Shown here piece after piece: positions 1 through 28,776 of a DNA stretch of 64,000 nt. How positions within the stretch are numbered: position 1 is the first letter of the stretch; each line of letters begins with the position of its first letter. Under the pieces are notes generated by a model that saw only the letters and a list, made by a program, of their open reading frames with translations, was not told where the DNA came from and searched no databases. The stretch is from Escherichia phage UE-S5b: the sequence record PP301341.1; one strand, given 5' to 3'. Both the position numbers and the translations under genes were made by a program.

Positions 1-2321
1 CCACTGGTATTCTTACCAACAAACAAGCCATTGCCCGTAAGTTTGGTGTTAAGCAGAATGAGGTTGTTTACTTTGCTGTAGGTGTAGACTTAGGGGAATA
101 CAAGGTCATTTATGATAAGACTACCCAGCGAGCTTACTCATTACCTGCAGACCTTGGTTCAGGGGTTACTGCTGTAAGCCTTAATACTGCCGGTGTGTTA
201 GTTCACTCTACTGGTAATGTTGACCTGGGTGCACTAGCTGTTTCACGAGGAGAGTTTATAACAGTCCCTGGGTCCTTCTCTTTGGGTTATGAGATTAAAG
301 TAAAGAATGAATGTCTTGAATACCAGGGTGGGTTGTATCGATGGGATGGCGCACTGCCAAAGGTTGTAGATGCTGGGTCTGTTCCTGATATTGGTACAGG
401 AAAGTGGCTGAGCGTCGGTGATGCAGCCCTGCGCAGCCAGATTTCAGACCCGGATGGTGCGTCCAGTTACCCTGAATTGCAGATGGCAAGATGGCGTGAT
501 GAGGGTGATGTTCGAGGCTGGGGTGCTAAAGGGGATGGTGTAACAGATAGTACGGAGAATATAGCTGCTTCACTAAATTCTCAAAAAGCTGTCGTAGCAT
601 CAGACGGTGTATTCTCTAGTTCTGGTATTAATAGTAATTACTGTAACTTAGACGGTAGAGGCAGTGGTGTACTAAGTCACCGTTCAAGTACAGGTAACTA
701 CTTAGTATTTAACAATCTACGCTCAGGTCGCTTAAGTAATATTACGGTAGAAAGTAATAAGGCGACCGATACCACTCAAGGGCAGCAGGTATCTCTTGCT
801 GGTGGCAGTGATGTTACTATAAGTGATGTTAATTTCTCAAACGTTAAGGGCGCTGGTTTCAGTTTAATCACATACCCTAATGATGCACCCTCTGATGGGC
901 TTATGATTAAAGGCATTCGAGGTAGCTACTCCGGCTATGCTACTAATAAGGCGGCTGGATGCATACTTGCTGATTCCTCGGTTAACTCCCTCATAAATAA
1001 CGTCATTGCTAAGAACTACCCTCAGTTCGGGGCTGTAGAACTGAAAGGTACAGCCAGTTATAACATAGTCAGCAATGTTATAGGGGCAGACTGCCAGCAT
1101 GTAACTTACAACGGTACAAAAGGGTCAATAGCTCCCTCTAACAACCTTATCAATGGGGTAGTGGCTAATAATCCTAAATATGCAGCGGTTGTTGCAGGCA
1201 AAGGTAGTACCAACTTAATCTCAGATGTGCTTGTAGATTTCTCAATCTCTGACGCTAGTCAGGCTCACGGTGTTACAGTAGAAGGCTCTGATAACGTAAT
1301 AAGCAATGTGCTTATGTCAGGATGTGATGGTACTAACTCTTTAGGGCAAGCTCAAACTGCTACAATTGCGCGCTTTATAGATACAGCTAATAACAACTAT
1401 GCGTCTGTATTTCCTAGCTACAGTGCTACAGGTGTTATTACTTTCGAATCAGGTTCTACCCGTAACTTCGTAGAGGTAAAGCATCCGGGAAGGAGAAACG
1501 ACCTTCTCAGTGCTACTGGTACTATTGAAGGTGCAGTTACTATTGACGGCACTAGTAATAGCAACGTAGTGCACGCACCTGCCTTAGGACAGTACATAGG
1601 TAGTATGTCAGGTCGGTTCGAATGGCGGATTAAGTCCATGTCACTTCCGTCAGGCGTTCTTACCTCGGCTGATAAATACAGAATGCTTGGGGATGGTGCT
1701 GTGTCATTAGCTGTAGGCGGGGGTACTTCTTCTCAAGTTCGCCTATTTACTTCTGATGGTACTTCTCGGACAGTATCACTCACCAACGGTAACGTGCGTC
1801 TTCCTACCAGTAGCACAGGTTATTTGCAGTTAGGTTCTGATGCAATGACCCCAGATAGTACTAATACATACGCATTAGGTTCCGCAAGTAGAGCATGGTC
1901 TGGCGGTTTTACTCAATCAGCATTCACTGTTGTCTCAGATGCTAGGGATAAAACAGAGCCTCTTAATATCTCAGATGCTTTACTGGATGCTTGGTCTGAA
2001 GTTGACTTTGTGCAGTTTCAGTACTTGGACAGGATTGAGGAGAAGGGTGCAGACTCAGCCAGATGGCACTTTGGTATCATCGCTCAGCGAGCTAAGGAGG
2101 CTTTCGAACGTCACGGCATAGATGCACATCGCTATGGCTTCCTGTGCTTCGACAGTTGGGATGATGTATACGAGGAAGATGCCAATGGCTCTCGTAAACT
2201 GATTACACCAGCAGGTTCCCGCTACGGTATTCGTTACGAGGAAGTACTGATATTAGAGGCTGCGTTGATGCGGCGTACTATTAAGCGTATGCAGGAAGCA
2301 TTAGCTGTTATGTCTAAGTGA
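1..2321 (+). CDS. tail fibre/tailspike protein, 5'-truncated at window edge, with C-terminal intramolecular chaperone (peptidase S74-like) domain
   Basis: Frame 3 is open from position 3 with no stop, so the ORF-track GTG start at 195 is not the real start. Ser/Thr/Gly/Asn-rich repetitive beta-rich body typical of fibre/spike proteins. C-terminal SDARDK motif (1935-1952) followed by about 125 aa resembles autoproteolytic chaperone domains of T5 pb1 and K1F endosialidase. Confidence 0.7.
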   Translation, partial: TGILTNKQAIARKFGVKQNEVVYFAVGVDLGEYKVIYDKTTQRAYSLPADLGSGVTAVSLNTAGVLVHSTGNVDLGALAVSRGEFITVPGSFSLGYEIKVKNECLEYQGGLYRWDGALPKVVDAGSVPDIGTGKWLSVGDAALRSQISDPDGASSYPELQMARWRDEGDVRGWGAKGDGVTDSTENIAASLNSQKAVVASDGVFSSSGINSNYCNLDGRGSGVLSHRSSTGNYLVFNNLRSGRLSNITVESNKATDTTQGQQVSLAGGSDVTISDVNFSNVKGAGFSLITYPNDAPSDGLMIKGIRGSYSGYATNKAAGCILADSSVNSLINNVIAKNYPQFGAVELKGTASYNIVSNVIGADCQHVTYNGTKGSIAPSNNLINGVVANNPKYAAVVAGKGSTNLISDVLVDFSISDASQAHGVTVEGSDNVISNVLMSGCDGTNSLGQAQTATIARFIDTANNNYASVFPSYSATGVITFESGSTRNFVEVKHPGRRNDLLSATGTIEGAVTIDGTSNSNVVHAPALGQYIGSMSGRFEWRIKSMSLPSGVLTSADKYRMLGDGAVSLAVGGGTSSQVRLFTSDGTSRTVSLTNGNVRLPTSSTGYLQLGSDAMTPDSTNTYALGSASRAWSGGFTQSAFTVVSDARDKTEPLNISDALLDAWSEVDFVQFQYLDRIEEKGADSARWHFGIIAQRAKEAFERHGIDAHRYGFLCFDSWDDVYEEDANGSRKLITPAGSRYGIRYEEVLILEAALMRRTIKRMQEALAVMSK

Positions 2322-2400
2322 GTAATACTGGTACGGTTAGATCAGTAGAGTTGGTTAACAGTAGCCTACGTACTACCAGGCTATTACTTATCTAGGTATA

Positions 2401-2430
2401 AAACCCCGCTCAGGCGGGGTTTGTTTTTAT
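2401..2430. terminator. bidirectional rho-independent terminator
   Basis: Hairpin ACCCCGC-TCAG-GCGGGGT preceded by an A-run and followed by TTTGTTTTTAT; sits between the end of the + tail fibre gene and the end of the - gene 2447-3073. Confidence 0.6.
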
Positions 2431-2446
2431 CTATTAATAATATTTC

Positions 2447-3073
2447 TTATATAGAGTTTACTGTTTGCATTGCCCTAATTGATACTGCTGTTAGGGTAAT
2501 TACTTGTCCTGAGATATTAAACATACCTAACTGAATACCGTCTACCATGAAAGGGTCAGTTGAACCAAGTGTGTAAGTAGCCAGTACGTTATCTCTGTTA
2601 GCAATGTCTGTACCCTGTACTTTAACACTAGCATCTGAACCTACTATCGTAATTCCATTGGTTCGTCTTGTTTGTGTTCTCCATTCCCTTGCTGTACCTG
2701 CACCACCTGCAATAATTCCTGATATACGAACACTGAACATTACCTGGGTATTCCTGGTTCTAATGGGGAACTTAAGATTTCCTTCTTCAATTGTTAGTGC
2801 TGCTGTACCTCCAGGTGATTTAGTTATCCCTGGTAATGAAAAGTAATTGAACCAGGATTGGTCATTTACTGCCTGGCTCCCGGTCCATGTATACAAGTCC
2901 AGAAGNAATGTGTCTTCTAACTCTGTTGGTGGGAAAGGTAGTAGTTCTGGGGGGATCTCTGAGATGTTATTAGCAGAAACTATTCGTTCCCCATAACTTC
3001 CCACGACCAACAATCCCCCCTTCATTTTGCACACAACATCCNTACCACTTTGGAAAATATCTTTAATAGACAT
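2447..3073 (-). CDS. hypothetical beta-rich protein (possible tail/adsorption accessory), antisense to the late operon
   Basis: ORF 2447-3100; ATG at 3073 preceded by GAGGT (5 nt spacer), whereas the track start at 3100 is GTG. Contains two N-derived X residues. Confidence 0.45.
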   Translation of the reverse strand: MSIKDIFQSGXDVVCKMKGGLLVVGSYGERIVSANNISEIPPELLPFPPTELEDTXLLDLYTWTGSQAVNDQSWFNYFSLPGITKSPGGTAALTIEEGNLKFPIRTRNTQVMFSVRISGIIAGGAGTAREWRTQTRRTNGITIVGSDASVKVQGTDIANRDNVLATYTLGSTDPFMVDGIQLGMFNISGQVITLTAVSIRAMQTVNSI

Positions 3074-3197
3074 AGTTACCTCGCAGTTGATACCAGACAC
3101 TATGTCTGGATGTATCCCATCATACTAAGTATTATCTAAGAGTCATCTTATGATACGACCCTATTGGGGTTCTTAACTTTACAACTACGGTAATATT

Positions 3198-3527
3198 ATG
3201 AATGAATCGGGCGAACTGCTTCTAGTCAGACTGGAGGAACGATTGAAGACTCTGTTTGAGAATCAGACGAGAGACAGACAGGACCGTGAGAAACTGGAGG
3301 AAACTCTGGGAGAATTACGGGATTCAATCAATGACATAGGCAATAGACTAAAAAATGTGGAGGATAGCTTAGCTAAGAATGAACCTACTATTGAAGAGTT
3401 CATCACCATTAAGCATAAAGTTGTTGGTGCTGGAATTTTTGGTAAGTGGGTATGGGCTGGAGCAGGTGCAATTATTGGTGTATTGGCTGCTGCAAGACGG
3501 GAGATATTCGCATGGTTCGCAGGCTAA
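3198..3527 (+). CDS. coiled-coil protein with C-terminal glycine-zipper transmembrane helix (possible lysis regulator/holin-like)
   Basis: N-terminal charged heptad-rich 75 aa, C-terminal VVGAGIFGKWVWAGAGAIIGVLAAA hydrophobic helix; immediately upstream of the lysis genes. Confidence 0.5.
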   Translation: MNESGELLLVRLEERLKTLFENQTRDRQDREKLEETLGELRDSINDIGNRLKNVEDSLAKNEPTIEEFITIKHKVVGAGIFGKWVWAGAGAIIGVLAAARREIFAWFAG

Positions 3528-3772
3528 AAAGAAAAGTAGAGTTAGTACCTAACTGGAAAAGNTGNTGGAANTGGGCATCCATTCANATTAGTACNNTTGG
3601 TTTANTTCTATTNTCNGCTNTAGATATNATCCAACCAATGGTGACAGGATTACCTCGTCACATCTTGGAAGATATTCCCCATGGTTCCAATATTGCAATC
3701 GCACTGTTTGCCTTAAACATCATAGGCAGATTAATACGATTCCGACCAAAGGAAGATTCACATGAAAGCTAA
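3512..3772 (+). CDS. putative small holin (two predicted TM segments); sequence contains multiple N
   Basis: ATG at 3512 preceded by GGGAGA; basic N-terminus MVRRLKRK then two hydrophobic stretches (second is SNIAIALFALNIIGRLI); overlaps the endolysin start by 11 nt. Ambiguous bases at 3540-3630 make the frame uncertain. Confidence 0.35.
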   Translation: MVRRLKRKVELVPNWKXXWXWASIXISXXGLXLXXAXDXIQPMVTGLPRHILEDIPHGSNIAIALFALNIIGRLIRFRPKEDSHES

Positions 3773-4397
3773 ACAGAAACTTGCTGCAAAAGGTGGTGCA
3801 GTGGGAGGGGTTATCGCTGCTATTCTGGGGGCAGTGTTCTATATGGAAGGAGGTTATGTAAACAATCCTCGTGACCCAGGTGGGGAAACTAATCATGGTA
3901 TTACCCAATCAGTAGCTAAGACTCATAAAGAAGTTCTGGCTACTGAGTANGGTTGGGATGGTTCTATGAAGGGTTTATCTAAAGAGATGGCTGCTGAGAT
4001 ATACATTGATGACTATGTACTTAAACCTAACTTCGTAGCCTTCGCTGATATATCTCCTGCTGTAACGCATAAGCTAGTAGATGCTGGTGTTAATACTGGT
4101 GTAACCCGTCCTGCTAAGTGGTTGCAGATGTCTCTTAATGAAATGTCACGTAATGGCAAAGACTACCCTAAAATACAGGTTGATGGTAAAGTCGGTACAA
4201 GTACTGTTAATGCATATAAAGCATTACAGAAAAAACGGGGCAAAGTTGCAGCATGTCAGGTAATGATTAAGCTGCTTGATGCTAAACAACTGAACCACTA
4301 TACCTCATTAAACATGCCAGACTTTACGTATGGTTGGGTAGCTAACCGAATAGGCAATGTGCCACTGGAGGCATGTAATGAAGATGCTAATCTCTAA
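3762..4397 (+). CDS. endolysin, N-acetylmuramidase of glycoside hydrolase family 108 with C-terminal peptidoglycan-binding domain and N-terminal signal-anchor (SAR-like)
   Basis: Canonical GH108 motif EGGYVNNPRDPGGETNHGIT; N-terminal hydrophobic stretch AKGGAVGGVIAAILGAVFYM; position matches N4 gp61. Confidence 0.85.
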   Translation: MKAKQKLAAKGGAVGGVIAAILGAVFYMEGGYVNNPRDPGGETNHGITQSVAKTHKEVLATEXGWDGSMKGLSKEMAAEIYIDDYVLKPNFVAFADISPAVTHKLVDAGVNTGVTRPAKWLQMSLNEMSRNGKDYPKIQVDGKVGTSTVNAYKALQKKRGKVAACQVMIKLLDAKQLNHYTSLNMPDFTYGWVANRIGNVPLEACNEDANL

Positions 4398-4884
4398 AGG
4401 TTGGCCTTATCTTCTGGTGGTGGTCCTTGGGGCCACCATTTACTTTTGGGGCAATTCCAATGGGCAGTCTACTGTTCAAAAGAAATGGGATGCCCAAAAG
4501 GTCGAAGACCAAAAGGCAACGCAAAAATTACAGGACAAATACAATGCTCTCCAAAGAAACCATAGTTATGAAGTCGGGTTACTCACTTCCCGGTTGCAGA
4601 CGGCTGAGAGTAATTACGCAAGCGAGCTTGCTCGCGTTAGCAGTGATTACGACAGCCGGATGCAACAGTCTGAAAGACGAGCATCGGTATATAAACGTCA
4701 AGCCGAAGCCGGAACCCTTGAGTGCAGAAGTCTTGCAAGCCATGCAGCCAGACTCGACAATAGTCTTGAAGAAGGCAGACGTTTGGTTGAAGAACTCCGG
4801 GCAACTGTTAGACTCCGTGACAGCCAACTAATTGAGTTGGGTAAACAGATTCAGGCTGACCGTAAACTTTTTGAACAGGAATAA
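4378..4884 (+). CDS. i-spanin (Rz-like): N-terminal TM anchor plus periplasmic coiled coil
   Basis: ATG 4378 preceded by GGAGG; [26 protein letters not shown] helix followed by a charged coiled-coil region; directly follows the endolysin. Confidence 0.65.
4568..4831 (+). CDS. o-spanin (Rz1-like lipoprotein) embedded in the +1 frame of the i-spanin gene
   Basis: +1 frame ORF inside 4378-4884; hydrophobic signal followed by lipobox-like ITTAGC; proline-rich short mature part; classic embedded Rz/Rz1 architecture. Confidence 0.55.
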   Translation: MKSGYSLPGCRRLRVITQASLLALAVITTAGCNSLKDEHRYINVKPKPEPLSAEVLQAMQPDSTIVLKKADVWLKNSGQLLDSVTAN

Positions 4885-4886
4885 CT

Positions 4887-7157
4887 ATGGAACACCAAGA
4901 CACTTTTAAGCCTTTACCAGACCCGGCTCAATCAGAGAAGTTAACGGACTGGAAGAAGGAACCAAGTATCCAATTACTGAAGGGTGATTTGGAATCTGCT
5001 AAACCTGCTCACGATGCAATCATGGCACAGATTCGTGAGTGGAATGATTTAATGGAAGTAAAGGGTAAGGCTAAACCCCCAAAGGTTAAGGGACGCTCGC
5101 AAGTCCAGCCTAGACTGGTTCGCCGTCAGGCAGAGTGGCGTTATGCTCCATTGTCTGAACCATTCCTCTCGTCTAACAAACTATTTAAGGTAACTCCGGT
5201 TACTTTTGAAGATGAGTTAGCTGCACGCCAGAATGAGCTAGTTCTTAACTACCAATTCCGTACTCAGCTTAATAAAGTAAAACTGGTAGATGATTACGTG
5301 CATAGTGTCGTAGATGACGGTACTGGTATTGCTCGTATCGGTTGGGAACGTAAGACTATTAAGATTAAAACAGAAACTCCAGTCTTCCAGTTGTATCCAA
5401 TTGAGAACCAGGAACAAGCAGATGTTCTCCAACAGGCTTTGCAGCTTCAGGCAGAGAATCCCCGTGAGTATGACGAAACAATGCCAGAAGATATCAAAGA
5501 AGCTGTTAACTACTTCAATGAAACTGGAGAAGCTACTTATGCAATTCAGACAGGGGTCACTGAAGTAGAAGTAGAAAAAGCACTGGTTAACAGACCTACC
5601 GTTGAAATGCTTAATCCTAATAACGTAGTTATTGACCCGAGCTGCAATGGTGATTTGGATAAGGCTCTGTATGCAGTCATTTCCTTTGAGACTTGCAAAG
5701 CAGACCTTATGAAAAACAAAGACCGTTATCACAACCTAGATAAAATTGACTGGGAGAGTTCCAGCCCCATTACTGACCCAGACCATGAAAGTAAAACCCC
5801 TAGCGATTTCCAGTTTAAGGATGCACTTCGTAAGAAGGTAGTTGCTTATGAGTACTGGGGATTCTACGACATCAATGATGATGGTTCACTGGAACCAATT
5901 GTTGCTACCTGGATTGGTTCTACTCTTATTCGTATGGAGAAGAACCCATTCCCAGATGGTAAGTTACCATTGGTAGTTGTTCCTTATATGCCTCGTAAAC
6001 GTGAACTCTATGGTGAAGCTGATGCTGAATTGCTAGGAGATAACCAAGCAATTCTTGGTGCAACCATGCGTGGGATGATTGACCTGTTGGGCCGAAGTGC
6101 AAATGGTCAACGTGGTTATCCTAAAGGGATGTTAGATACCCTGAACCGTCGTCGATACGATGATGGACAAGACTACGAATATAACCCAATGCAGGGCAAT
6201 CCTAGTCAGGCCATTATGGAACACAAGTTCCCTGAGTTACCCCAGTCGGCAATAGTAATGACTCAGATGCAAAACCAGGAAGCAGAAGCACTAACGGGTG
6301 TTAAAGCATTCTCGGGTGGTGTAACTGGTGAAGCTTACGGAGATGTAGCTGCTGGTATTCGTGGTGTACTAGATGCAGCATCCAAACGTGAGATGGCAAT
6401 CCTTCGTCGATTAGCTAAGGGTATGGCAGACATTGGTACTAAGATTTGTGCAATGAATGCTGTGTTCTTATCTGAGAAAGAAGTAGTACGTATTACTAAC
6501 GAGCAGTACGTAGAGATTAACCGTGAAGACCTTAAAGGTAACTTCGACATTGAGGTTGATATTAACACTGCTGAAATTGATAACCAGAAGTCCCAGGATT
6601 TGGGCTTCATGGTTCAAACACTAGGCAACACAGTTGACCAGTCTATTACGTTATCTCTTGTAGCTAAGATTGCAGAACTTAAACGTATGCCAGACCTTGC
6701 TCATGAGTTACGTACATGGCAACCACAACCAGACCCTATGGAAGAACAGCTTAAGCAATTGGCAATTCAGAAAGCACAGCTTGAGAACGAAGAGCTGCAA
6801 AGTAAGATTGCACTCAATATGGCTAAGGCTAAAGAGGCTGCTTCTAGTGGTGACCTTAAAGATCTGGATTATCTGGAACAGGAATCTGGTACTAAACATG
6901 CTCGTGACATGGAAAAACAAAAAGCACAATCTCAAGGAAACCAGAACCTTCAGATAACTAAGGCGTTGACAACACCTACTAAAGAAGGTGAAACTACCCC
7001 CAACATATCTGCTGCTGTTGGATATAACGCTTTGACTAATGGGAACTCTATACCAGAACGTGACTTAGCTGCACAACAAGACCCAGCTTATTCACTTAGT
7101 TCCCAATTCTATGACCCTAGCCAAGACCCAGCATCGGCTCTTGGCATGAACTTGTAA
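4887..7157 (+). CDS. portal protein (N4 gp59-like)
   Basis: 756 aa, position between lysis genes and capsid genes, size matches N4 portal; assigned by synteny and size rather than a specific motif. Confidence 0.75.
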
Positions 7158-16762: not shown

Positions 16763-19700
16763 TTGAACAGGAAACATGCTATGTCAACATTTGACCGTCT
16801 GGCAGGTTTCGCAGACAGCATCACTAATGCTAAGCAAGTCGATGTCTCTACTGCAACCTCTCAGAAGCAAGCTGCACAAGGGCAAAGCCCTTCCCAATTA
16901 ACCCCAGAGAATGCTTACAATCTCCAAACTGGTCGTGTAGGTAATCTTGGAATCGGTGCATTCGAACCAGGTTCACTTCAGGCAGATTTCACGCAAGCCT
17001 CCCCATTAGAAATTCTTAATAAATACGGTAATGAGCAAGGTCTACAGATTCTTAATAGCCGGGCTAATGCTGCTGATGCTGTACGTCAGGACTTATCTAA
17101 ACAACGTACTAACGCAGAAGCATTTGGTGATACTCTTTCTGGTGTTGGTCTTGGTGTTGCTAATACCCTTGGGGGCATTGCTGCTCTTGGCACAGGTCTG
17201 GTCAATGATAATGCCGGGGCATCCATTGCTTCCGGTATGGATTGGCTGAATGAAGGGGTACACAATCTACAGTCTGATGCTCTGAATGCTACCCGTAAGG
17301 TTGTTCAGAATCAGAACCAGATTTCTGCACAAAAGAACCAGAAACTCTACGAAGAAGACATTAAAAATGGAGAGAGCAGTTTGGTTGCCTCTCTGTCTCG
17401 TATTGGTCGTGATGCTTTTGATTCTGTTGCTAATACGCTTGATAATGGTATGGCTGCTACTGATGGGCTGAGTGAAGGTGTTGGTTCTCTCTTTACCGGT
17501 GGTCCATTAATTCGTGGTGTATCTGCACTCGGTAAAGTAATGGTAGGTGGTGATAAAGCTGTTAAGGGTATTACCTTAGCTGCTGAGTTAGGTTCACGTC
17601 CTGCACAGGTTGCATTGTCTGCTGGTCGTGTTGCTGCACCTGCTATTGCAATTGGTGGTATGGAAGCTGGTGGTGCATACCAACAGACTGCTTCCGAAAT
17701 CATGAAGATGTCCCATCAAGAATTGGCAAGTAAGTCTCCTGTTTATCAACAGCATATCGCTGATGGTTTATCTCCTGATGAAGCACGTCGCCAAACTGCA
17801 TCTGAAACGGGTATCATTGCTGCTGGCTTAACTGCTCCGGTTGCTGCTGCTACTGGTCCTCTGGTATCCAAATTTGAACTTAACCCACTTAAGGTAGGTT
17901 CGCTGGCTGGTGCTGGTTCTAACATGCTACGTGAAACAGTAGAAGAAGGTATTCAGTCTGGTACAAGTCAGTTTGCACAGAACAAGGCAATTCAGGGTAA
18001 TGTAGATGCTAAGCGTGATTTGCTTAAAGGTGTCGGTGAGCAAGCAGGTCTTGGTGCACTCTACGGCTTCGGTAGTGCTGGTGTTGCTCAGGCTCCAGGT
18101 ACAACTGTTAAAGCTGTTGGTGCTTCTGCTGGGCCTGCTTTACGTACTACTCTGGCTGGTGCTTCTCTGGTTGGTAGTGCATTAGCAAAAGCTGCCTCTC
18201 CTATTACTAACATCCTGGTTCAGCGTGGCGAAGAAGTTGCTAAGCGTAATGAACAAGCTTCCCCTGTATCTGATGCTACGGTTAATGCTGCTGCACAAGA
18301 AGCTACTGCTCAAGCAGAACAAGCACAAGCAACTGTACAAGAAGCAGTAGATGCAATGGATATTTCTCCTGAAGAGAAAGCTGCTGCTACTCAGTATGCT
18401 GCTGACTTAACTCAGGCAATGAAATTTGACCCAGTAGAACTGGAACAAGCTAACCCAGCAATCCGTGAAGCTGTTTCTGGTTCCACTAACCGTGTTGAAG
18501 CTATTCAGAAGATGGCTGACCTGGTTAATACTGCCGAAGACCCTAACGTTCAAATGGAAGCTGCAATCCAGATGTATGACAACATCATGTCTATGGATAG
18601 CTTCATTAACCGTGATCCTGGTGCTTTAGCTAATCTGGAACAGGGTTCTCCTGCTGCTAATATTGTTGACCAGTTCTCCGGCCTGATGGCTAACGTTCAG
18701 AATACACCAAAGGTACTTCGTGCATTCCGTGCCATCCATTCTATGATTCAGGAACAGGCTGAAGCAGGTAAACTGAAAGCTACCGAAGAAGCTAACCAAG
18801 CCCAAGCAAACAACATTGCTATGGCTGCTGATATGTCTCCAGAAGTACTGGATGCAGACTCAGTGAACATGGTTCTGAAACATGCAAGTGAAGGTAAGAT
18901 TACACTGGGGAATCGTCAGCGTGCTGCCCTGCAATCTGCTGCTGCTCTATTGCAAGGAGCACGAGAATTTGACGCTAAAGCAGAAGAACTAGGCTTACGT
19001 CCTCAAGACATTGTTAGTAAACAGATTAAAACCGACGAGTCTCGTTCTAATGAAGGTCAGTACTCTGCGTTGCAACATGCTAAACGCATTCGTTCTGCGT
19101 ACAACTCTGGTAACTTCGATTTGGCTTCCGCTTACCTCGACGACTTTATGAAGTTCGCCCAGCACATGCAGAATAAGGTCGGAGCGTTGAATGAGCATCT
19201 GATTTCTGGGAATGCGGATAAGAATAAGTCTGTCCATTATCAGGCTCTTACTCCCTCCCGTGAATGGGTACGTAGTCGTACTGGTCTTGGTGTCAATCCG
19301 TATGATACCAAGTCGGTTAAGTTTGCCCAGCAAGTAGGACTGGAGGCCAAAACCGTAGCTGATATTGCTAACGCACTTGCTACGGCTTACCCGGAGCTTA
19401 ATGTTTCTCATGTGAAGGTTACTCCATTAGATTCACGTCTGGACAAGCCTGCTGCCCAGGTAGTTAAAGAGTTCCGTCAAGGTGGTCTTGATGCCACTCA
19501 GTCTCAACAGACCAATGAACCAGTGAATCAGGTTGATGAAACTCCTGCACCAGCGCAAGAGACTACTACTACTGTACAGCCTAAAGCTAAACCAGTGGTA
19601 GAAAATAAGACTGTTCCTGTTAAAGAGGCTAGTTCAAAAGCAGAAGAAGTCTCTACTACTAAGTCTGAAACAGTAGATGCTACCCTCACCAATGAGGATA

Positions 19701-22700
19701 CCACTCAAAAAGTAGCTGAAACTAAAACGGAAATGGAAACAGTTTTCCCTGTCTATAACAATGACAAGACACCGAACCAGTTCCTGAAATCATTTACCCT
19801 GCCGGAAGAACCTAAGTCTCGCACCATTGGTTCTGAATCCCCTTTGACTGATATTAAGCAAGCACTGTCTTCTACTGCACGCTTTGAAGCATTCACTCAA
19901 AAAGAAAATAACGCTCTCACAAGTGATGTGATTAAGCGTTATCAGGACTTAATGGGCTTTGGTGAAACTCTGAAGACTACTCTGTCTGATCGTCTGGCTA
20001 AGTTTCTTGCTAATAAGAACGTTGGTAAACGCTTTGCAGAAGGCACAGAGGCTAACCGTTGGGTAGGTGGTAAGTTACTTAATATCGTAGAGAAAGACGG
20101 AGACACCTTTAAGTTCAATGACCAGTTGTTAGAGACTGCTGTACTTGCTGGTCTGCAATGGCGACTGACTGCTACACAGAATGCTGCTGTTAAAGACATG
20201 AAAGATGTAGCTGCTATTACTGGAGTAGAAGCATCCTTGTTACCTGAAGGTATCCTGGCTGAATTTGAGAATGCTCAGACTCTGGTTGAAGCTACTAACT
20301 CACTGGCTCAAAAGATTGAATCTTACTGGGGATTGAATCGTAATCCTAATGCACCACTGGGTTATACCAAAGGTATTCCAATGGCAATGGCTACAGAGAT
20401 TCTGTCTTCTCTCATTGAGATGGGTGAAGTTAAAGAGTCTATGCTTGATGTGTCTGAGATTGACCCAGACTCTAATAAGACCGTCGGTCTGTATACCATT
20501 GAGAAGCTGGATGATAACGATGCCATTAACAAGTTCCCTACTGCTATCGAGGAAGCTGTTCTCGTAGAACCAGAAGAGAAAATGTACTTTGGTGATGATA
20601 TTCCTTCCGTGGCTCAAACTCAGTTACGTAACCCTGCTGTTAAGAATACCCCAGAGCAGAAAGCTGCTCTTAAAGCAGAACAGGCTACCGAGTTCCGTGT
20701 ACACATGCCGATGGTTAACTTCTATGAAGCATTAGGTCGTGACAACATTCTGGAACTGATGGGTGCTGGTACTCTTAATCCTGAACTGCTGAACGTGAAC
20801 ACTGCTAAGTCACTGGAGGGTAAAAACCTGTCAGTGTCTATGGCATATGATTCCCTGTTCGGTGTAATCAACCAGTTACAGGAACAGGAGAATGGTCTGG
20901 ATACGCCTATTCACTATGGTTACAACATGACCCGTGTAGGTCGTATGCAGATGTTAGGTAAGAACAACCCACAGTCCAGCAAGCTGGTTCGTGAAGCAAT
21001 TCTGCCAACCTTCTCTACTATCGACTTAAGTAATGAAAACAGTCAGACGTTCTCTGATTTCCAGTTAGGTCTGTCTCAGGCATTAGGTATCAAGGTTCAT
21101 AATATGTCCCGTGAAGCTATGTCTGAAAAACTGACCAAAGCTCTGGAAGGTAATTTGAAACCTGCTGTTGATATGATGGTTGAGTTTGATAAGTCCGGGC
21201 ACTTACCAGCCGATGCAGTAGATATTCTTAAGACATCTCTGGGTGGTGATAAATCATTCGTAGCTCTTATGGCTCTTATGGAGTATGCCCGTTACCTGAA
21301 CAGTGATGACCGTGCCAACTTTAATACCCCACTGTACGTTGAAGCCGATGGTGTAACCAACGGACCAATCAACGCAATGGTATTAATGACTGGTGGTAAG
21401 TTCACTTCAGACTGGATTAAGAATACTGCTAAAGGTGGTCTGTTCTTCGGTAAAGCTGGTAAGACTATGAATGAACATCGTTCACAGGATGACAGTGTTG
21501 ACCTGTATGAAGCATCTACCAATGGTCTGCAACAAGCACTTAATGAGTTACGTACTACTTACCGTAACAACGTTCCGGTTATGAACCAAATGAATCATCT
21601 TCAGAAGTTAATGGACCTGTTTATTAAAGACTTTAACCTGAATGAAGACGGTACTCTGGACCTGAAACGTGGTATCGCTAAAAACCCACTGACCATTACC
21701 ATCTATGGTTCAGGTGCTCGTGGTATTGCTGGCAAGATGGTTAGTGCAATTACTGACACCATCTATGAACGATTCAGTGATGTTCTGCAAGCTCGTGCTG
21801 CTGACCCTAGTATTTCCCCAGCTATGGCAATGTTTGGTAAGGAGGCTGCGTCTGAGGCTGATGCTCAGGCTATGCTGGATACTTTCCTTACTTCTATGGA
21901 AGCACTGACTGGTAATGTTCCAGTTATGCGTAAAGGTGAATTGTCTATTCAACAGGTAGAAGGTGCTCTGACTGGTAAGTTAGACCCTCAGAAGTTTACC
22001 GTATCGGGTAATGCCCTGAAGAACTTACAAGAGAACATGCTTCACCTGTTCGTTGAACCAATGCGTACTGGTATCCGGAATACTGTTGGGGAAGGTCTGA
22101 TGCATTCTACTGAGAACTTGCAGAAGGCTACCCAGATTCAGTCTTTGGTTCTACAAGACATGTTCCAACAAGCAGTACAGGCTAAGCTGGCAGAAAAAGA
22201 AAAAGACCCAACCTGGAAGAAGGGTGATTTCTTAACACAGAAAGAACTGAATGAAATTCAGGAATCATTGTCTCCACTGGCTCCAATGATTGAGACTGGT
22301 TCACAGACTTTCTATATTGCTGGTAGTGAGAATACTGATGTTGCTAACCAGGTACTGGCTACCAACTTAGATGACCGTATGCGTGTGCCAATGAGCATCT
22401 ATGCTCCTTCTCAGGCAGGCGTTGCAGGTATTCCATTTATGACCATTGGCACTGGTGATGGCATGATGATGCAGACCCTTTCTACTATGAAAGGTGCTCC
22501 GAAGAATACCCTGAAAATCTTTGATGGTATGAACATTGGTATCAACAACATCACTGATGCAAGTCGTAAAGCTAACGAGGCTGTATACACTTCCTGGCAG
22601 GGTAACCCTATCAAGAATGTTTATGAGTCTTTTACTAAGTTCATGAAGAACGTAGACTTCAGCAAACTATCTGATGAAACCAAACAGGCTATCGCTAAAT

Positions 22701-25700
22701 CTGCTCTGGAATATGACCAGCGTGAAGGTGCTACCGATGACCTGTTACGTGTTGGTGCTGAACAGATTGAACGTAACCTGCGTAATATTGCTCTGGGTGT
22801 AGATATTCGTCACAAAGTAATGAACCAGGTACAGACTACTGTTGACCAGATGGCTGCTGTTGGTGCTCCTTATGTGAACAACGGTAAAATCTCTCTGGAA
22901 GGTCTGACCGTAGACCAACAAGTAGCTAAGCTAAATGAACTGTTCGATGCTGAATTAAACAAACGTCGTGATGCAGTACGTGCTGCTAAAGTAGAACCAG
23001 TGAAAGAAGTGCCAGCAATGGAACAGGTTGGTCGTGTACTGAAGTCTGGTGTACGCCTACTGTCTAATACTGCTATCTCTAAGCTGGCTAAAGAGATGTC
23101 TCCGGAACAGCAAGCAGTACTGAAAGAAGTACAGAAATCCCTTGCTGCTAAAGACTATAAGGTTGTTTACGGTACACCTTCCCAACTGGATGCTTATGCT
23201 ATTGAGAAGAATATTACTCGCCCAGCACCAGAAGATATTGAAGCTGCTGAAGCTGGTAATGCGTATGGTTGGACTAACTTTGAAGATAAGACCATCTACT
23301 TAGTTACCCCTTCCTTAGAGACTCTGGTTCATGAATTGGTGCATGCTTCTACTTTTGAATCTGTACTGGCTCACTATGAGGGTACTCCTAATGAAGCGGT
23401 CCAGAACATTGAAGACCTGATGAACCAGTTCCGTGCTCTGGATGTTAAGGATGAATCCCCGGCAGTTCGGGAAGCATATGCAGATGCTCTTAATACTATT
23501 AACGGTCATTTATCTAATGGCTTTATTGAGCCAGCAATGGCTAAAGCTGCTGCACTGAATGAGTACATGGCATGGGGTTTAACCAACCGTGAACTGATTA
23601 GTAAGCAGAAGAAAACCACTGCACTTAAGACTATGGTTCAGGCTGTATATGAAGCAATTAAACGTCTGGTATTCGGGCGTAAGAAAGCACCAGCTAATGC
23701 AGATGATATGTTCTCTGGCTTACTGTTTAACTCGTCCGTAGTTATGCGTGGGCAAGCTCCTACTGCTGCTGTAGCCAAAGATACTACTCTGTTCCATAAC
23801 AAAACGTATGGTGACAATACTCGTCTGGAAGAGCTAGGGAAAACCTTCGATAAACTGATTACTGACTACATTGGTTCTGAACCAGTACAGCAAGTAATTC
23901 GTAAAGGTAAGTTCTCTGATGCAGTGGTTAATGCGACTAAAGTAACTCGTGATGTTCAGGCTCATGGCTTCACTATGAATATGCAGGAACAACGTCTCTT
24001 TACTAACATTGTTGCTGCTCTGGCTACTGAGGCTGCTATTAATCCTGCTGCTCTGGCTCGTGCGCAGGAATACTACACACATGTTACTAAGAACCTGACC
24101 GTTGAGTCATTCATGNCTGACCCAGATAGTACTAACCCTGCTGACCGTTACTATGCACAGCAGAAGTTCGATACCATCATGGGTGCTAACAACATTGAGT
24201 TTGATTCACAAGGTCGTTCCTCCTTACTGCCTACCTTTATTGGTCTGGCGATGGTAAGTGAAGAGGTACGTAAAGTGCTGGCTGATATTCCAGTTATGAA
24301 AGTAGACAAGAAATCTGGCAATACCGCTGATGCAATGCTGACTAACATCGGTACTGCTGCAATGGCTAGTCTGAATGCTCGTGTAGCAGGAGATACTAAA
24401 GCTACCAACGTACAGGAAGGTATGGATGCACTGGCTCAGACAATCATGCAGACCAGTCTTAATGCACAATCCTTCTATGATTCCGTTGCTACTCCTACGG
24501 GTAATGCTATTGATCGTGCTAACCAGTATCTGGTGGACTCTATTGATGTACTGTCTACCCGTGCTTTAGAAGGTGCTCGTGAAGTTGCAGCTAATACCAA
24601 GAACCCGTTGGTTAAAGGTGCTGCCCATGCTGCACAATTAATAGCTGCTATTGCTACAGAGAAGAATGGTGCAATCGTAGCCGAAGGTGTTATGGCTGCA
24701 ATGAACCAGGGTAAGGTATGGCAACCTTTCCATGACCTGGTTAATGACTTAACTGGTCGTACTAAGAGCAATGCTTCTGTATATGATTTGATTAAAGCAG
24801 TGCGTGCACAGGTACAGGCTGACCGTCAACAGTTCCGTGAACATCTGCCCACCACTATTGCATCTAAGTTCAGCCGTAAGCTTACTAATGATGAGTGGAA
24901 AGCAATGCATACCGGTATGGGTAAAACCGACTTAGCTGTTCTGCGTGACACTATGTCTCTGGGTGAAATTCGTGACTTGCTGACTGACCAAAAGATTGTT
25001 GACCGTGAAGTGAATAAGCTGGAAGCAGATTTGCAGAAACAAGCAGGACGTAACTGGCCTTTGATTAGCCGTAAATCTAAGCAACTGGCTCAGTACATGA
25101 TTAATGGCACAGTTGGTAATAACTTGCTGCGTAATGCTACTGCAATCTCTCGTATGCTGGGTGAACGACAGGCTGCACGTTCTACTGTAGACGTAGCTCA
25201 ACTGGATAAACTGATTACTCTGTATGCACTGGAAGCAATGAGTAAGACTGACCGTGAGATGTTATCTTCACTGGCTCAATCAGAGATTGAAGGCATGGAC
25301 TTCGCTACTTCTTATCTGGTTGGTCAGCGTAAAGATGAAATGGCTAAAGCCAAATCTGATACTCGTGCAACTCTGAACCAGTACAAAGGGTATATTCCTG
25401 GTGAGACTAAACAGGGTGTTAACTTGATTGTTGCTGAAGATAGTCAGTTTGCTGATTTGATTGAGAAGTCCTATGTACGTCTGGGTACTTATCAGGGTAG
25501 CTCTGCTAATCGTGGTCCAGCACGTAGCTACTACTTTGCACCGGTACAGGCACAGGCTCCATTCTCGCAAGGTATCTTACAGAACGTTCGCAATACTGCT
25601 GGTGGTGTAGACCTTGGTACAGGCTTTACGATGGGTACAATGGTAGCTGGTCGTATCACTGACAAGCCTTCTGTAGACCGTATCACTAAAGCACTGGCTC

Positions 25701-27133
25701 GCGGTGAACGTGGTAATGAACCACTGCTGCCTGTATATGATGATAAAGGCAATGTGGTTGCTTATGAGCAATCTATTGACCCTAACATGCTGAAGCACAT
25801 TGAGGGTGAGAACCATCTCGCTCGTGCAATCGGTGTATGGCGTGGTCGTCAGGTAGAGGAAGCTAAGGCTCAGCGTTTCAACGATATGCTGATTGAGAAC
25901 CTGCATAGCATGTATAAAAACGACATTAAAATGTCTGCCTCTAACAAGTCACAGTACGTTAACCTTCTTGGTTCTAAACTGGACCCAGTAACTGCTGATG
26001 CCCTTAAGCTGATGAACAGTGAAACTCGTCAGAAAGCAGAAAGTCTGTTTGGTCCTGGTGAGTTGTGGGTACGTCGTGACATGCTGAATGATGCACTGGG
26101 CTATCGTGCAGCTTCCGTAGGTGATGCCTGGTCTGGCAATTCTCGTTGGTCACCAGAAACACTGGATACCTTCAAGAAAGCTATGTTGGGTGTATTCGGC
26201 AACCGTGCTTATAAGTATGTAATGGGTGGTGAGAACCTGGTTCAAAACTTAGTTAAAGAAGCCAAAACTCTGATTGTAGTTAAGTCAGTAGTTGTTCCTG
26301 CTGTTAACTTCCTGGCTAACCTTTACCAGATGGTTGGTCGTGGTGTACCTGTTAAGAACATTGCTAAGAGCATTCCACAGAAGACTGCTGAGATTAACCA
26401 GTACCTGAAATCTCGTCTGCGTCAGGTAGATGCAGAAGCAGANTTACGTGCAGCTACTAACCCGAACCAGATTCGTAAGCTTAAGGCTGAAATTCAGTCC
26501 ATCACTGATAGTCATAAGCGTATGAGTATCTGGCCTCTGTTAGAAGCTGGTGAGTTTTCTTCAATTGCAGATGCTGGTATTGGACGAGATGACATCCTGA
26601 TTACTGAAGGTAAACTTCACGAATACATGGATAAACTGGCTGATAAGTTACCTAAGTCTGTACGTAATGCTGGACGTTATGCCCTTATCACCAAGGATAC
26701 TGCTTTATTCCAGGGTATCCAGAAGACGGTTGAGTACTCTGACTTTATTGCTAAAGCAATCATCTATGATGATTTGACTCAGCGTAAAGGTAAGACTCGT
26801 GAAGAAGCACTTGGACGTGTAACGGAAGAGTTCATTAACTATGACCGTCTGCCTGGTCGCTTCCGTGGGTATATGGAAAGTGTTGGTCTTATGTGGTTCT
26901 ATAACTTTAAGATTCGTTCTGCAAAAATTGCAGTATCCATGATTCGTAACAACCCGGTACACGCAGCTATGGCTATGTTGGCTCCAACTCCTACCATGTT
27001 TGGTAATGTTGGTTTACCTATTCAGGACAACATCTTCAGTATTGCTGCACAAGGCAATCTCGGTTACTCCTGGGGCTTCGGTCAGGGACTTCGTGCCCAT
27101 AACCTTAACCCTTGGCTCAATCTAGCTAACTAA
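16763..27133 (+). CDS. virion-encapsidated RNA polymerase (vRNAP, N4 gp50-like)
   Basis: Single 3456 aa ORF, the hallmark giant protein of N4-like phages; last gene of the late operon; contains T7-RNAP-like motif B-like segment (PLTITIYGSG). Three isolated N. Confidence 0.9.
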   Translation: MNRKHAMSTFDRLAGFADSITNAKQVDVSTATSQKQAAQGQSPSQLTPENAYNLQTGRVGNLGIGAFEPGSLQADFTQASPLEILNKYGNEQGLQILNSRANAADAVRQDLSKQRTNAEAFGDTLSGVGLGVANTLGGIAALGTGLVNDNAGASIASGMDWLNEGVHNLQSDALNATRKVVQNQNQISAQKNQKLYEEDIKNGESSLVASLSRIGRDAFDSVANTLDNGMAATDGLSEGVGSLFTGGPLIRGVSALGKVMVGGDKAVKGITLAAELGSRPAQVALSAGRVAAPAIAIGGMEAGGAYQQTASEIMKMSHQELASKSPVYQQHIADGLSPDEARRQTASETGIIAAGLTAPVAAATGPLVSKFELNPLKVGSLAGAGSNMLRETVEEGIQSGTSQFAQNKAIQGNVDAKRDLLKGVGEQAGLGALYGFGSAGVAQAPGTTVKAVGASAGPALRTTLAGASLVGSALAKAASPITNILVQRGEEVAKRNEQASPVSDATVNAAAQEATAQAEQAQATVQEAVDAMDISPEEKAAATQYAADLTQAMKFDPVELEQANPAIREAVSGSTNRVEAIQKMADLVNTAEDPNVQMEAAIQMYDNIMSMDSFINRDPGALANLEQGSPAANIVDQFSGLMANVQNTPKVLRAFRAIHSMIQEQAEAGKLKATEEANQAQANNIAMAADMSPEVLDADSVNMVLKHASEGKITLGNRQRAALQSAAALLQGAREFDAKAEELGLRPQDIVSKQIKTDESRSNEGQYSALQHAKRIRSAYNSGNFDLASAYLDDFMKFAQHMQNKVGALNEHLISGNADKNKSVHYQALTPSREWVRSRTGLGVNPYDTKSVKFAQQVGLEAKTVADIANALATAYPELNVSHVKVTPLDSRLDKPAAQVVKEFRQGGLDATQSQQTNEPVNQVDETPAPAQETTTTVQPKAKPVVENKTVPVKEASSKAEEVSTTKSETVDATLTNEDTTQKVAETKTEMETVFPVYNNDKTPNQFLKSFTLPEEPKSRTIGSESPLTDIKQALSSTARFEAFTQKENNALTSDVIKRYQDLMGFGETLKTTLSDRLAKFLANKNVGKRFAEGTEANRWVGGKLLNIVEKDGDTFKFNDQLLETAVLAGLQWRLTATQNAAVKDMKDVAAITGVEASLLPEGILAEFENAQTLVEATNSLAQKIESYWGLNRNPNAPLGYTKGIPMAMATEILSSLIEMGEVKESMLDVSEIDPDSNKTVGLYTIEKLDDNDAINKFPTAIEEAVLVEPEEKMYFGDDIPSVAQTQLRNPAVKNTPEQKAALKAEQATEFRVHMPMVNFYEALGRDNILELMGAGTLNPELLNVNTAKSLEGKNLSVSMAYDSLFGVINQLQEQENGLDTPIHYGYNMTRVGRMQMLGKNNPQSSKLVREAILPTFSTIDLSNENSQTFSDFQLGLSQALGIKVHNMSREAMSEKLTKALEGNLKPAVDMMVEFDKSGHLPADAVDILKTSLGGDKSFVALMALMEYARYLNSDDRANFNTPLYVEADGVTNGPINAMVLMTGGKFTSDWIKNTAKGGLFFGKAGKTMNEHRSQDDSVDLYEASTNGLQQALNELRTTYRNNVPVMNQMNHLQKLMDLFIKDFNLNEDGTLDLKRGIAKNPLTITIYGSGARGIAGKMVSAITDTIYERFSDVLQARAADPSISPAMAMFGKEAASEADAQAMLDTFLTSMEALTGNVPVMRKGELSIQQVEGALTGKLDPQKFTVSGNALKNLQENMLHLFVEPMRTGIRNTVGEGLMHSTENLQKATQIQSLVLQDMFQQAVQAKLAEKEKDPTWKKGDFLTQKELNEIQESLSPLAPMIETGSQTFYIAGSENTDVANQVLATNLDDRMRVPMSIYAPSQAGVAGIPFMTIGTGDGMMMQTLSTMKGAPKNTLKIFDGMNIGINNITDASRKANEAVYTSWQGNPIKNVYESFTKFMKNVDFSKLSDETKQAIAKSALEYDQREGATDDLLRVGAEQIERNLRNIALGVDIRHKVMNQVQTTVDQMAAVGAPYVNNGKISLEGLTVDQQVAKLNELFDAELNKRRDAVRAAKVEPVKEVPAMEQVGRVLKSGVRLLSNTAISKLAKEMSPEQQAVLKEVQKSLAAKDYKVVYGTPSQLDAYAIEKNITRPAPEDIEAAEAGNAYGWTNFEDKTIYLVTPSLETLVHELVHASTFESVLAHYEGTPNEAVQNIEDLMNQFRALDVKDESPAVREAYADALNTINGHLSNGFIEPAMAKAAALNEYMAWGLTNRELISKQKKTTALKTMVQAVYEAIKRLVFGRKKAPANADDMFSGLLFNSSVVMRGQAPTAAVAKDTTLFHNKTYGDNTRLEELGKTFDKLITDYIGSEPVQQVIRKGKFSDAVVNATKVTRDVQAHGFTMNMQEQRLFTNIVAALATEAAINPAALARAQEYYTHVTKNLTVESFMXDPDSTNPADRYYAQQKFDTIMGANNIEFDSQGRSSLLPTFIGLAMVSEEVRKVLADIPVMKVDKKSGNTADAMLTNIGTAAMASLNARVAGDTKATNVQEGMDALAQTIMQTSLNAQSFYDSVATPTGNAIDRANQYLVDSIDVLSTRALEGAREVAANTKNPLVKGAAHAAQLIAAIATEKNGAIVAEGVMAAMNQGKVWQPFHDLVNDLTGRTKSNASVYDLIKAVRAQVQADRQQFREHLPTTIASKFSRKLTNDEWKAMHTGMGKTDLAVLRDTMSLGEIRDLLTDQKIVDREVNKLEADLQKQAGRNWPLISRKSKQLAQYMINGTVGNNLLRNATAISRMLGERQAARSTVDVAQLDKLITLYALEAMSKTDREMLSSLAQSEIEGMDFATSYLVGQRKDEMAKAKSDTRATLNQYKGYIPGETKQGVNLIVAEDSQFADLIEKSYVRLGTYQGSSANRGPARSYYFAPVQAQAPFSQGILQNVRNTAGGVDLGTGFTMGTMVAGRITDKPSVDRITKALARGERGNEPLLPVYDDKGNVVAYEQSIDPNMLKHIEGENHLARAIGVWRGRQVEEAKAQRFNDMLIENLHSMYKNDIKMSASNKSQYVNLLGSKLDPVTADALKLMNSETRQKAESLFGPGELWVRRDMLNDALGYRAASVGDAWSGNSRWSPETLDTFKKAMLGVFGNRAYKYVMGGENLVQNLVKEAKTLIVVKSVVVPAVNFLANLYQMVGRGVPVKNIAKSIPQKTAEINQYLKSRLRQVDAEAXLRAATNPNQIRKLKAEIQSITDSHKRMSIWPLLEAGEFSSIADAGIGRDDILITEGKLHEYMDKLADKLPKSVRNAGRYALITKDTALFQGIQKTVEYSDFIAKAIIYDDLTQRKGKTREEALGRVTEEFINYDRLPGRFRGYMESVGLMWFYNFKIRSAKIAVSMIRNNPVHAAMAMLAPTPTMFGNVGLPIQDNIFSIAAQGNLGYSWGFGQGLRAHNLNPWLNLAN

Positions 27134-28376: not shown

Positions 28377-28620
28377 TAGTACTATTTACCCATAGCTGGG
28401 AGGCTTTTGGTTCTTACCACGAAGACAGTCCACGCTGACNAGNCTTGGGATTGATAGTCCCGTTCCTGTGGTAATTACTCAGGCTAGGATTTAAGGAGTT
28501 CCTATTCTCCAGCGAAATTCCCGTCGANGGGAATAACAATACAATAGCAGNCACTGGACTGTCTTACCAGTGTTGTCTTTAGAGTGCNATGCAATCAGGA
28601 CTATGTTACTGCTGAATGGG

Positions 28621-28694
28621 TGTCCACTACTGGATTTGAACCAGTGACTTTCCGATTATTAGTCGGTTGCTTTCCCCGTCTAAGCTAAGTGGAC
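28621..28694 (-). tRNA. tRNA gene, canonical cloverleaf, anticodon loop CUAAUAA (apparent anticodon AAU, identity uncertain)
   Basis: Hand fold of - strand: acceptor GTCCACT/AGTGGAC (7 bp perfect), D-arm GCTT/AAGC, T-arm ACTGG-TTCAAAT-CCAGT, anticodon stem CCGA/TCGG. Confidence 0.55.
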
Positions 28695-28700
28695 TTATTA

Positions 28701-28776
28701 TGGTTACCCAGGCAGGATTCGAACCTGCGTCCTAGTTGGTTTACTAGTGGGGCTTTACCACTAAGCCTACTGGGTA
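28701..28776 (-). tRNA. tRNA gene with encoded CCA; anticodon loop appears 6 nt (AAACCA), identity unresolved
   Basis: Hand fold: acceptor TACCCAG/CTGGGTA, D-arm GGCT-TAGTGGTAA-AGCC, T-arm GCAGG-TTCGAAT-CCTGC, 3' ACCA; anticodon stem CTAGT/ACTAG leaves a 6 nt loop. Confidence 0.55.

Follow-up and report, generated by a model that had tools for sequence, protein, structure and literature searches.

Positions 3198-4884 of a 64,000-nucleotide stretch of the Escherichia phage UE-S5b genome (record PP301341.1; the whole stretch is called the window here) hold five genes on the + strand, joined by short overlaps throughout and bounded by the start of a gp63-like gene and the stop of an Rz-like gene. 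The gp63-like gene (3198-3527; 109 amino acids, aa) encodes a coiled coil followed by a C-terminal transmembrane (TM) helix, the gp62-like gene (3512-3772; 86 aa) a protein with two TM segments, and the gp61-like gene (3762-4397; 211 aa) a muramidase with GH108 and PG_binding_3 domains. They are followed by an Rz-like inner-membrane spanin gene (i-spanin; 4378-4884; 168 aa) and, entirely within it in the +1 frame, an Rz1-like outer-membrane spanin gene (o-spanin; 4544 or 4568 to 4831; 95 or 87 aa). The overlaps between the four successive genes measure 16, 11 and 20 nucleotides (nt), and Shine-Dalgarno-like sequences precede ATG 3512, ATG 3762, ATG 4378 and ATG 4544; the overlaps, together with the position of Shine-Dalgarno sequences within the preceding genes, suggest that a single late transcript is translated with coupling from gene to gene. 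Two nucleotides past the Rz stop the portal gene begins (Pfam SU10_portal, E=1e-150). Judged from its sequence, the region is the lysis cassette among the late genes of a G7C-like, N4-related coliphage of the genus Gamaleyavirus, gene-for-gene orthologous to gp63-gp62-gp61-gp60/gp60a of phage N4, and by this orthology it is very probably a system of pinholin, signal-anchor-release (SAR) endolysin and two-component spanin, with an accessory large-hole holin.

The placement in Gamaleyavirus (Schitoviridae, Enquatrovirinae) comes from megablast, in which 88 phage records were matched; positions 3100-4950 were 99.3-99.4% identical to UE-S5a, UE-M3 and UE-M6 and 94-97% identical to about 50 other genomes of the genus, whose records label the region endolysin or N-acetylmuramidase, holin and Rz-like spanin. 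The shortfall from UE-S5a is explained by the 12 ambiguous bases (N) that the window carries at 3100-4950: in an ungapped position-by-position comparison there were 12 differences in 1851 bases, all at N positions, and the DNA is identical to that of UE-S5a at every called base of the cassette. Eleven of these N (3562-3628) lie where the gp62-like gene encodes its first TM segment. In total 64 N occur in the window, and they are clustered (3562-3628, 7-8 kb, 16-17 kb, 28-29 kb and 49-50 kb) rather than scattered; those in the cassette conceal no insertion or deletion, and every open reading frame (ORF) is intact after they are filled.

The cassette is already known, in that its DNA is deposited, its genes are annotated (imperfectly) in relatives and its N4 orthologue has been characterised experimentally. 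Both spanins, the muramidase and a putative holin are annotated in St11Ph5 and G7C (gp60, gp60', gp61, gp62 and gp63 in G7C), and the Gamaleyavirus records (UE-S5a/UE-M3/UE-M6, St11Ph5, Bp4 and G7C) differ from the window in annotation only. In GenBank the gp63 homologue is commonly mislabelled 'tail length tape-measure protein' or 'tail needle protein', or is called 'hypothetical' (for example at L001 3644-3928 and L003 1599-1928), the embedded o-spanin is unannotated in many records, and Bp4 annotates just a 74-aa C-terminal Rz fragment. The value for annotation is that the first gene can be named as a gp63-type pinholin gene, the embedded o-spanin can be annotated, and the gp62 and Rz starts can be set at 3512 and 4378, respectively. 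A sigma-70 scan of 2300-5200 returned 3 promoter-like sites, against 5.9 in shuffles, and no + strand candidate in the 97 nt upstream of gp63; the terminator-like hits inside coding regions of the same interval are probably due to chance.

The gp63-like protein is 69% identical to N4 gp63 (BLASTP, E=1e-54) and, on sequence grounds, is the orthologue of that pinholin, with small-hole formation the function expected by orthology. It belongs to phrog_5211 (E=2.7e-50), a PHROG of unknown function, and Pfam and PHROG searches gave no holin match. Its N-terminal ~79 residues are charged and helical, and the sole hydrophobic peak in a hydropathy scan (aa 80-98, IFGKWVWAGAGAIIGVLAA) is Gly/Ala-rich with a small-xxx-small pattern at G90, G94 and A98; the predicted C-terminal TM helix spans aa ~80-99 (nt ~3435-3494). 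The juxtamembrane stretch at aa 63-74, PTIEEFITIKHK, is the conserved 'LIN-domain' region, and an alignment with N4 and St11Ph5 shows the TM and LIN regions to be nearly identical to those of N4 gp63, with T65, I70, T71 and I72 kept and S62 replaced by Asn. Full-length homology, a single C-terminal TM domain and this LIN region place the protein in the N4 gp63 family. As a single sequence in AlphaFold2 it is modelled as all-helical, with a mean predicted local distance difference test (pLDDT) score of 53 that falls below 50 over residues 64-109, which makes the model uninformative. The first ATG (3198) has no Shine-Dalgarno sequence, and an in-frame TTG at 3243-3245 on the + strand, at the position of the alternative start Met17 of N4 gp63, is preceded by GGAGG at 5 nt and is the gene start in UE-S5a. 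A dual start conserved across the gp63 family was considered and rejected, as this codon is ATG or TTG in only 10 of 34 distinct homologues and CTG without a Shine-Dalgarno sequence in the G7C group; TTG 3243 stays a possible second start.

The gp62-like protein is 67% identical to N4 gp62 (BLASTP, E=1e-44) and falls in the N4 gp62 holin family by family hidden Markov model (Pfam DUF7940, PF25612, E=1.3e-8, 35.7 bits against a cut-off of 27; phrog_1356 holin, E=2.6e-22) and by its two TM domains, seen as hydropathy peaks at aa ~22-40 and ~59-77. Its basic N-terminus, acidic inter-TM loop and basic C-terminus suggest an N-in/C-in topology. The start is ATG 3512, which has a GGAG Shine-Dalgarno 8 nt upstream, and not GTG 3446 of the mechanical ORF list. 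The 108-aa form that would begin at GTG 3446, a 22-codon extension comparable to the 109-aa N4 form in the preprint, is probably no conserved coding feature: the extension is open in N4 and close relatives, distant relatives lack it, three loci (L013, L016 and L017) have a stop four codons before the ATG that closes it, and it overlaps the strongly constrained TM-coding region of gp63. The preliminary description of this region, made from the letters alone, had recognised a coiled-coil protein with a C-terminal glycine-zipper helix and a small N-rich ORF with two TM segments, and both features hold; it had left their roles open between holin, antiholin and pinholin-like, a choice that included the answer given by N4 orthology, namely pinholin for gp63 and late-triggering holin for gp62.

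The muramidase is 71% identical to N4 gp61 (BLASTP, E=4e-111) and is assigned to GH108, the N4 gp61 family, by a Glyco_hydro_108 match above the gathering score (PF05838, E=5.6e-20, 72.1 bits, cut-off 21.2), an EGGY motif at aa 29-32 and a C-terminal PG_binding_3 domain (PF09374, E=1.1e-7, 32.4 bits, cut-off 24.6). Directly abutting the catalytic EGGY is a SAR-like segment, GGAVGGVIAAILGAVFYM (aa 11-28; nt 3792-3857 on the + strand when EGGY is included), of 18 uncharged residues, 50% of them Gly, Ala, Ser or Thr, which follows the Lys-rich N-terminus KAKQKLAAK; the position of N4 gp61 G12 is a conserved Gly in this protein. No obvious A-x-A cleavage site was seen in the N-terminus by eye. A weakly hydrophobic, Gly/Ala/Ser-rich N-terminal segment behind basic residues, with cleavage-site absence judged in this way, is the sequence pattern of a SAR endolysin. 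The nearest solved structures found by phmmer are PDB 6v3z (E=4.7e-27) and 6v40 (E=4.4e-20), over residues ~24-197, and since residue 24, within the hydrophobic stretch, is where the Pfam GH108 match and the alignment to 6v3z both start, the SAR-like segment looks like part of the mature fold rather than a cleaved signal. By analogy with N4 gp61, the enzyme would be a SAR endolysin tethered to the membrane and released upon depolarisation.

The i-spanin belongs to phrog_6197, Rz-like spanins (E=1.3e-77), and is 57% identical to N4 gp60 (BLASTP, E=4e-60). An N-terminal TM segment at aa ~9-24, the hydrophobic peak of the first ~29 residues, is followed by a helical periplasmic domain, as in a type II inner-membrane protein. 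Translation from ATG 4378 is favoured by a GGAGG Shine-Dalgarno 6 nt upstream and by the use of this start in related records; ATG 4357 of the mechanical ORF list, which has no Shine-Dalgarno sequence, was rejected. The o-spanin precursor has 95 aa if translated from ATG 4544, which an AGGA Shine-Dalgarno precedes by 8 nt, and 87 aa if translated from ATG 4568; the conserved start is ATG 4544, the position of ATG 4568 being Thr in L005 and L007. Its signal-like hydrophobic segment leads into the lipobox ITTAG|C (Cys codon 4661-4663), which fits the PROSITE-type pattern [LVIMFWSTAG]2-[LIVMFYSTAGCQ]-[AGS]-C and leaves a mature part of 56 aa, so that the gene encodes a small lipoprotein wholly in the +1 frame of the i-spanin gene; it is annotated as gp60.1 in St11Ph5 and gp60' in G7C. 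The mature o-spanin has the lipidated Cys only, and the i-spanin a single periplasmic Cys. The pair is of the embedded Rz/Rz1 type and would disrupt the outer membrane as N4 gp60/gp60a do. The preliminary description had also proposed a textbook GH108 motif and an N-terminal signal-anchor on the endolysin, together with an embedded lipoprotein ORF marked by ITTAGC, and all three are borne out. Two weak points that it had named itself came out in its favour, as the lipobox is intact once the N are filled and the endolysin N-terminus on the N-filled sequence runs continuously into the catalytic Glu.

Conservation was followed by scanning IMG/VR with a gp63 alignment, which gave 50 loci at 36-99% identity, from which 45 gp63 homologues were aligned; because one of the retrieval patterns (KTLFEN[QN] and PTIEEFI) was PTIEEFI itself, the invariance of that motif in the set is partly by construction. 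The downstream gene order is the same in most of these loci by tblastn. All 44 loci with an Rz homologue, down to ~35% Rz identity, carry an embedded +1-frame ORF with a hydrophobic signal and a lipobox-type Cys, the strict lipobox pattern being found in 40 and a near-variant in 4; the mature o-spanin is 54-63 aa long across them, mostly 56, and shares the core LQAMQP(D/N)ST...LLDSV. Every GH108 homologue of the related loci carries 14-19 uncharged residues, ~50% Gly, Ala, Ser or Thr, between basic residues and E-G-G. In some distant loci (L036 3588-4019, L031 669-1097, L044 3309-3863, and also L041 and L043) the gp63-like gene and the embedded Rz/Rz1 pair are kept and the GH108 SAR enzyme is replaced by a Hydrolase_2, Amidase_2 or Phage_lysozyme endolysin without an N-terminal hydrophobic segment, and L031 and L044 also encode a different small membrane protein. 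These replacement endolysins look soluble, so a pinholin alone could not release them.

Functional expectations for the cassette derive from N4 (NC_008720), where the order gp63-gp62-gp61-gp60 and the adjoining portal gene gp59 are as in the window and the +1 frame of gp60 encodes the equivalent lipoprotein, with a mature part of 56 residues. The N4 cassette has been tested genetically in a preprint of 2025-26, in which cloned gp60-63 lyses E. coli at ~25 min (bioRxiv 10.1101/2025.11.12.688109). N4 gp61 has the behaviour of a SAR endolysin and complements defects of the endolysin in lambda as well as in phage-21-hybrid lysogens; it is membrane-associated and functions with a pinholin, muramidase biochemistry is cited for it, and its rapid-lysis mutants carry an acidic residue in the SAR domain, for example G12E (bioRxiv 10.1101/2025.11.12.688109). 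The spanins gp60/gp60a complement lambda Rz/Rz1 ambers, and complementation and CCCP (carbonyl cyanide m-chlorophenylhydrazone) assays identify gp63 as the pinholin and gp62 as a late-triggering canonical holin (bioRxiv 10.1101/2025.11.12.688109). On its own N4 gp63 kills >99% of cells, which marks it as a pinholin, and it complements an S21 pinholin defect but no defect of a large-hole holin; its anchor is C-terminal and its coiled coil cytoplasmic, although topology predictors disagree, and its rapid-lysis mutations at S62, T65, I70, T71 and I72 define the 'LIN domain' (bioRxiv 10.1101/2025.11.12.688109). Deletion of gp62 leaves cassette-driven lysis unchanged, and when gp63 is deleted lysis comes 20 min later and suppressors in the SAR domain are selected (bioRxiv 10.1101/2025.11.12.688109).

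In the mechanism proposed for UE-S5b, the GH108 muramidase would be exported by Sec, and its Gly/Ala-rich, weakly hydrophobic SAR domain would hold it in the inner membrane in an inactive form, while the gp63-like protein, anchored via its C-terminal TM helix, would accumulate and then trigger as a pinholin, depolarising the membrane. Depolarisation would cause the synchronous release and refolding of the endolysin and hence the degradation of murein, with the two-TM gp62-like protein acting as an accessory, later-triggering large-hole holin. The i-spanin, as a type II protein of the inner membrane, and the o-spanin, as an outer-membrane lipoprotein, would form a periplasm-spanning complex that disrupts the outer membrane after removal of the murein mesh. 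Gene structure, homology, domain content, hydrophobic segments and the lipobox are seen in the sequence, as is their conservation; topology, triggering, enzymatic activity and lysis timing in UE-S5b we infer.

Several points weigh against this pinholin/SAR-endolysin scheme. The N4 data come from a preprint, and its gp62 phage deletion was not complemented from a plasmid and is inconclusive according to the authors (bioRxiv 10.1101/2025.11.12.688109). We found no experiment on a Gamaleyavirus cassette in the literature, and functions are transferred across 57-71% identity. The topology of the gp63-like protein is ambiguous, with basic residues on both sides of the TM helix (KHK before, RRE after), the assignment of a SAR domain rather than a cleavable signal draws on composition and on N4, and Thr at -3 of the o-spanin lipobox is less canonical than Leu. 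G7C, the type phage of the genus to which UE-S5b belongs, reportedly lacks the lysis inhibition of N4, so regulation may differ from N4 (bioRxiv 10.1101/2025.11.12.688109). The gp63 of G7C (L018, NC_015933) has all five LIN residues as in N4, set against Asn at S62 in the corresponding stretch of the window (3378-3419). The S62N exchange was accordingly rejected as the cause of absent lysis inhibition in G7C-like phages, G7C itself having Ser there, and a full LIN motif in a phage without lysis inhibition places the determinants probably outside the motif. A comparison of G7C-type cassettes with that of N4, where lysis inhibition is strong, could help locate these determinants, as the two share an essentially identical gp63 LIN region.

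The roles of the two upstream proteins could differ from those in N4, the gp62-like protein being the real holin and the gp63-like protein no hole-former but an antiholin, a regulator of timing or an activator of the SAR endolysin akin to a 'releasin'. GenBank names speak for such an exchange ('holin' for a gp62 homologue and 'putative antiholin' for one gp63 homologue, in Stenotrophomonas phage Piffle), as does earlier thesis work, cited in the preprint, that treated gp63 as an activator of gp61 (bioRxiv 10.1101/2025.11.12.688109). The concentration of rapid-lysis (LIN) mutations in gp63 would suit a regulatory target, and in distant relatives gp63-like genes stand beside apparently soluble endolysins and another small membrane protein, where pinholes would be insufficient for release. 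We nevertheless regard this exchange of roles as improbable, given the lethality of N4 gp63 alone and its complementation of S21, the lack of effect of the gp62 deletion on cassette lysis, and the delay and SAR-domain suppressors that follow gp63 deletion, all in a protein to which the gp63-like product is 69% identical overall and nearly identical in the TM and LIN regions. Still less probable, and in our estimate very unlikely, is a muramidase whose N-terminus is a cleavable Sec signal, giving a soluble periplasmic enzyme of the Oenococcus fOg44 Lys44 type that is regulated by membrane energisation alone. Signal peptides, too, have a basic n-region ahead of a hydrophobic stretch, but the 18-residue stretch, half of it Gly, Ala, Ser or Thr, has no obvious A-x-A site and runs straight into the Glu of EGGY, and with residue 24 already included in the GH108 match and in the alignment to 6v3z, cleavage past the stretch would truncate the fold. 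N4 gp61 is moreover membrane-associated and functions with a pinholin, and G12E within the segment gives rapid lysis. It is thus mainly the N4 genetics that appear to contradict both of these alternatives.

There is a small chance that the gp63-like protein, beyond being a partner of SAR endolysins, is a general C-tail-anchored lysis trigger and timer of Schitoviridae, in which case S62N and/or the internal TTG-16 start with its strong GGAGG could tune lysis timing via two isoforms in the Gamaleyavirus lineage of UE-S5b; this is prompted by the distant relatives that keep gp63-like and spanin genes while the endolysin type is swapped.

Upstream of the cassette lies a tailspike body at 404-2337 (in ORF 195-2321, running off the window start) with Tail_spike_N and a Peptidase_S74 chaperone, named 'K5 lyase' in UE-S5a. 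In phages of the T7-like genera Kayfunavirus and Vectrevirus, tailspike genes have ~93% DNA identity to it, which suggests that a receptor-binding module was exchanged between podophage families that are not related. Between tailspike and cassette, on the - strand, is a 217-aa ORF (2447-3100; phrog_17779, of unknown function, with no Pfam match) that is present in UE-S5a and Bp4, is absent in St11Ph5 and G7C, and is possibly an accessory gene (moron) specific to the lineage; between it and the convergent tailspike gene is a hairpin (2401-2422) that is GC-rich and has a T-run. Farther along, ARAGORN places a tRNA-Ile at 28619-28694 on the - strand, with AAT as its unusual anticodon, and, adjacent at 28701-28776 on the same strand, a tRNA-like gene for whose two-base anticodon it gave no determination, possibly owing to local N. 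A giant ORF of 3456 aa (16763-27133), a hallmark of N4, presumably encodes the virion RNA polymerase.

Among the closest known systems, the N4 cassette shares the five genes, their order and overlaps, the portal adjacency, the SAR pattern abutting EGGY and the 56-aa mature o-spanin. It differs in gp63 (Ser62, Met13 and Met17 in N4 against Asn, Leu and Leu in UE-S5b, position 17 being the TTG codon), in the lipobox (TIVG|C in N4, ITTAG|C in UE-S5b) and upstream, where N4 has gp64/gp65 in place of the divergently oriented 217-aa ORF and the K5-lyase tailspike. With lambda Rz/Rz1 the spanin pair has in common an o-spanin lipoprotein gene lying wholly in the +1 frame of the i-spanin gene, although it belongs to another sequence family (phrog_6197, type member N4 gp60). 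The Salmonella muramidases 6v3z ('Sen1395') and 6v40, which we take to be TtsA-type typhoid-toxin secretion muramidases, have the same GH108/PG_binding_3 two-domain fold family; they are domesticated, secretion-associated enzymes of bacteria, whereas the UE-S5b enzyme stands in a complete phage lysis cassette.

The likeness to phage 21 (S21/R21) and to P1 Lyz lies in the principle of a tethered endolysin that is freed when a small-hole holin depolarises the membrane, and for phage 21 it extends to function, with N4 gp63 complementing the S21 defect and N4 gp61 working in a phage 21 hybrid lysogen. Unlike the GH108 muramidase, R21 and P1 Lyz have the T4 lysozyme fold (GH24). S21 has a dual-start antiholin and two TM domains, the first of them SAR-like. 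The gp63-like protein has no sequence relationship to S21 and, unlike it, carries one C-terminal TM domain after a cytoplasmic coiled coil of ~80 aa; this single C-terminal hydrophobic segment behind an ~80-aa soluble N-terminal domain sets it outside the S21-type (class II) pinholins. The gp63-like protein may thus work like a pinholin, but it is no member of the S21 family.

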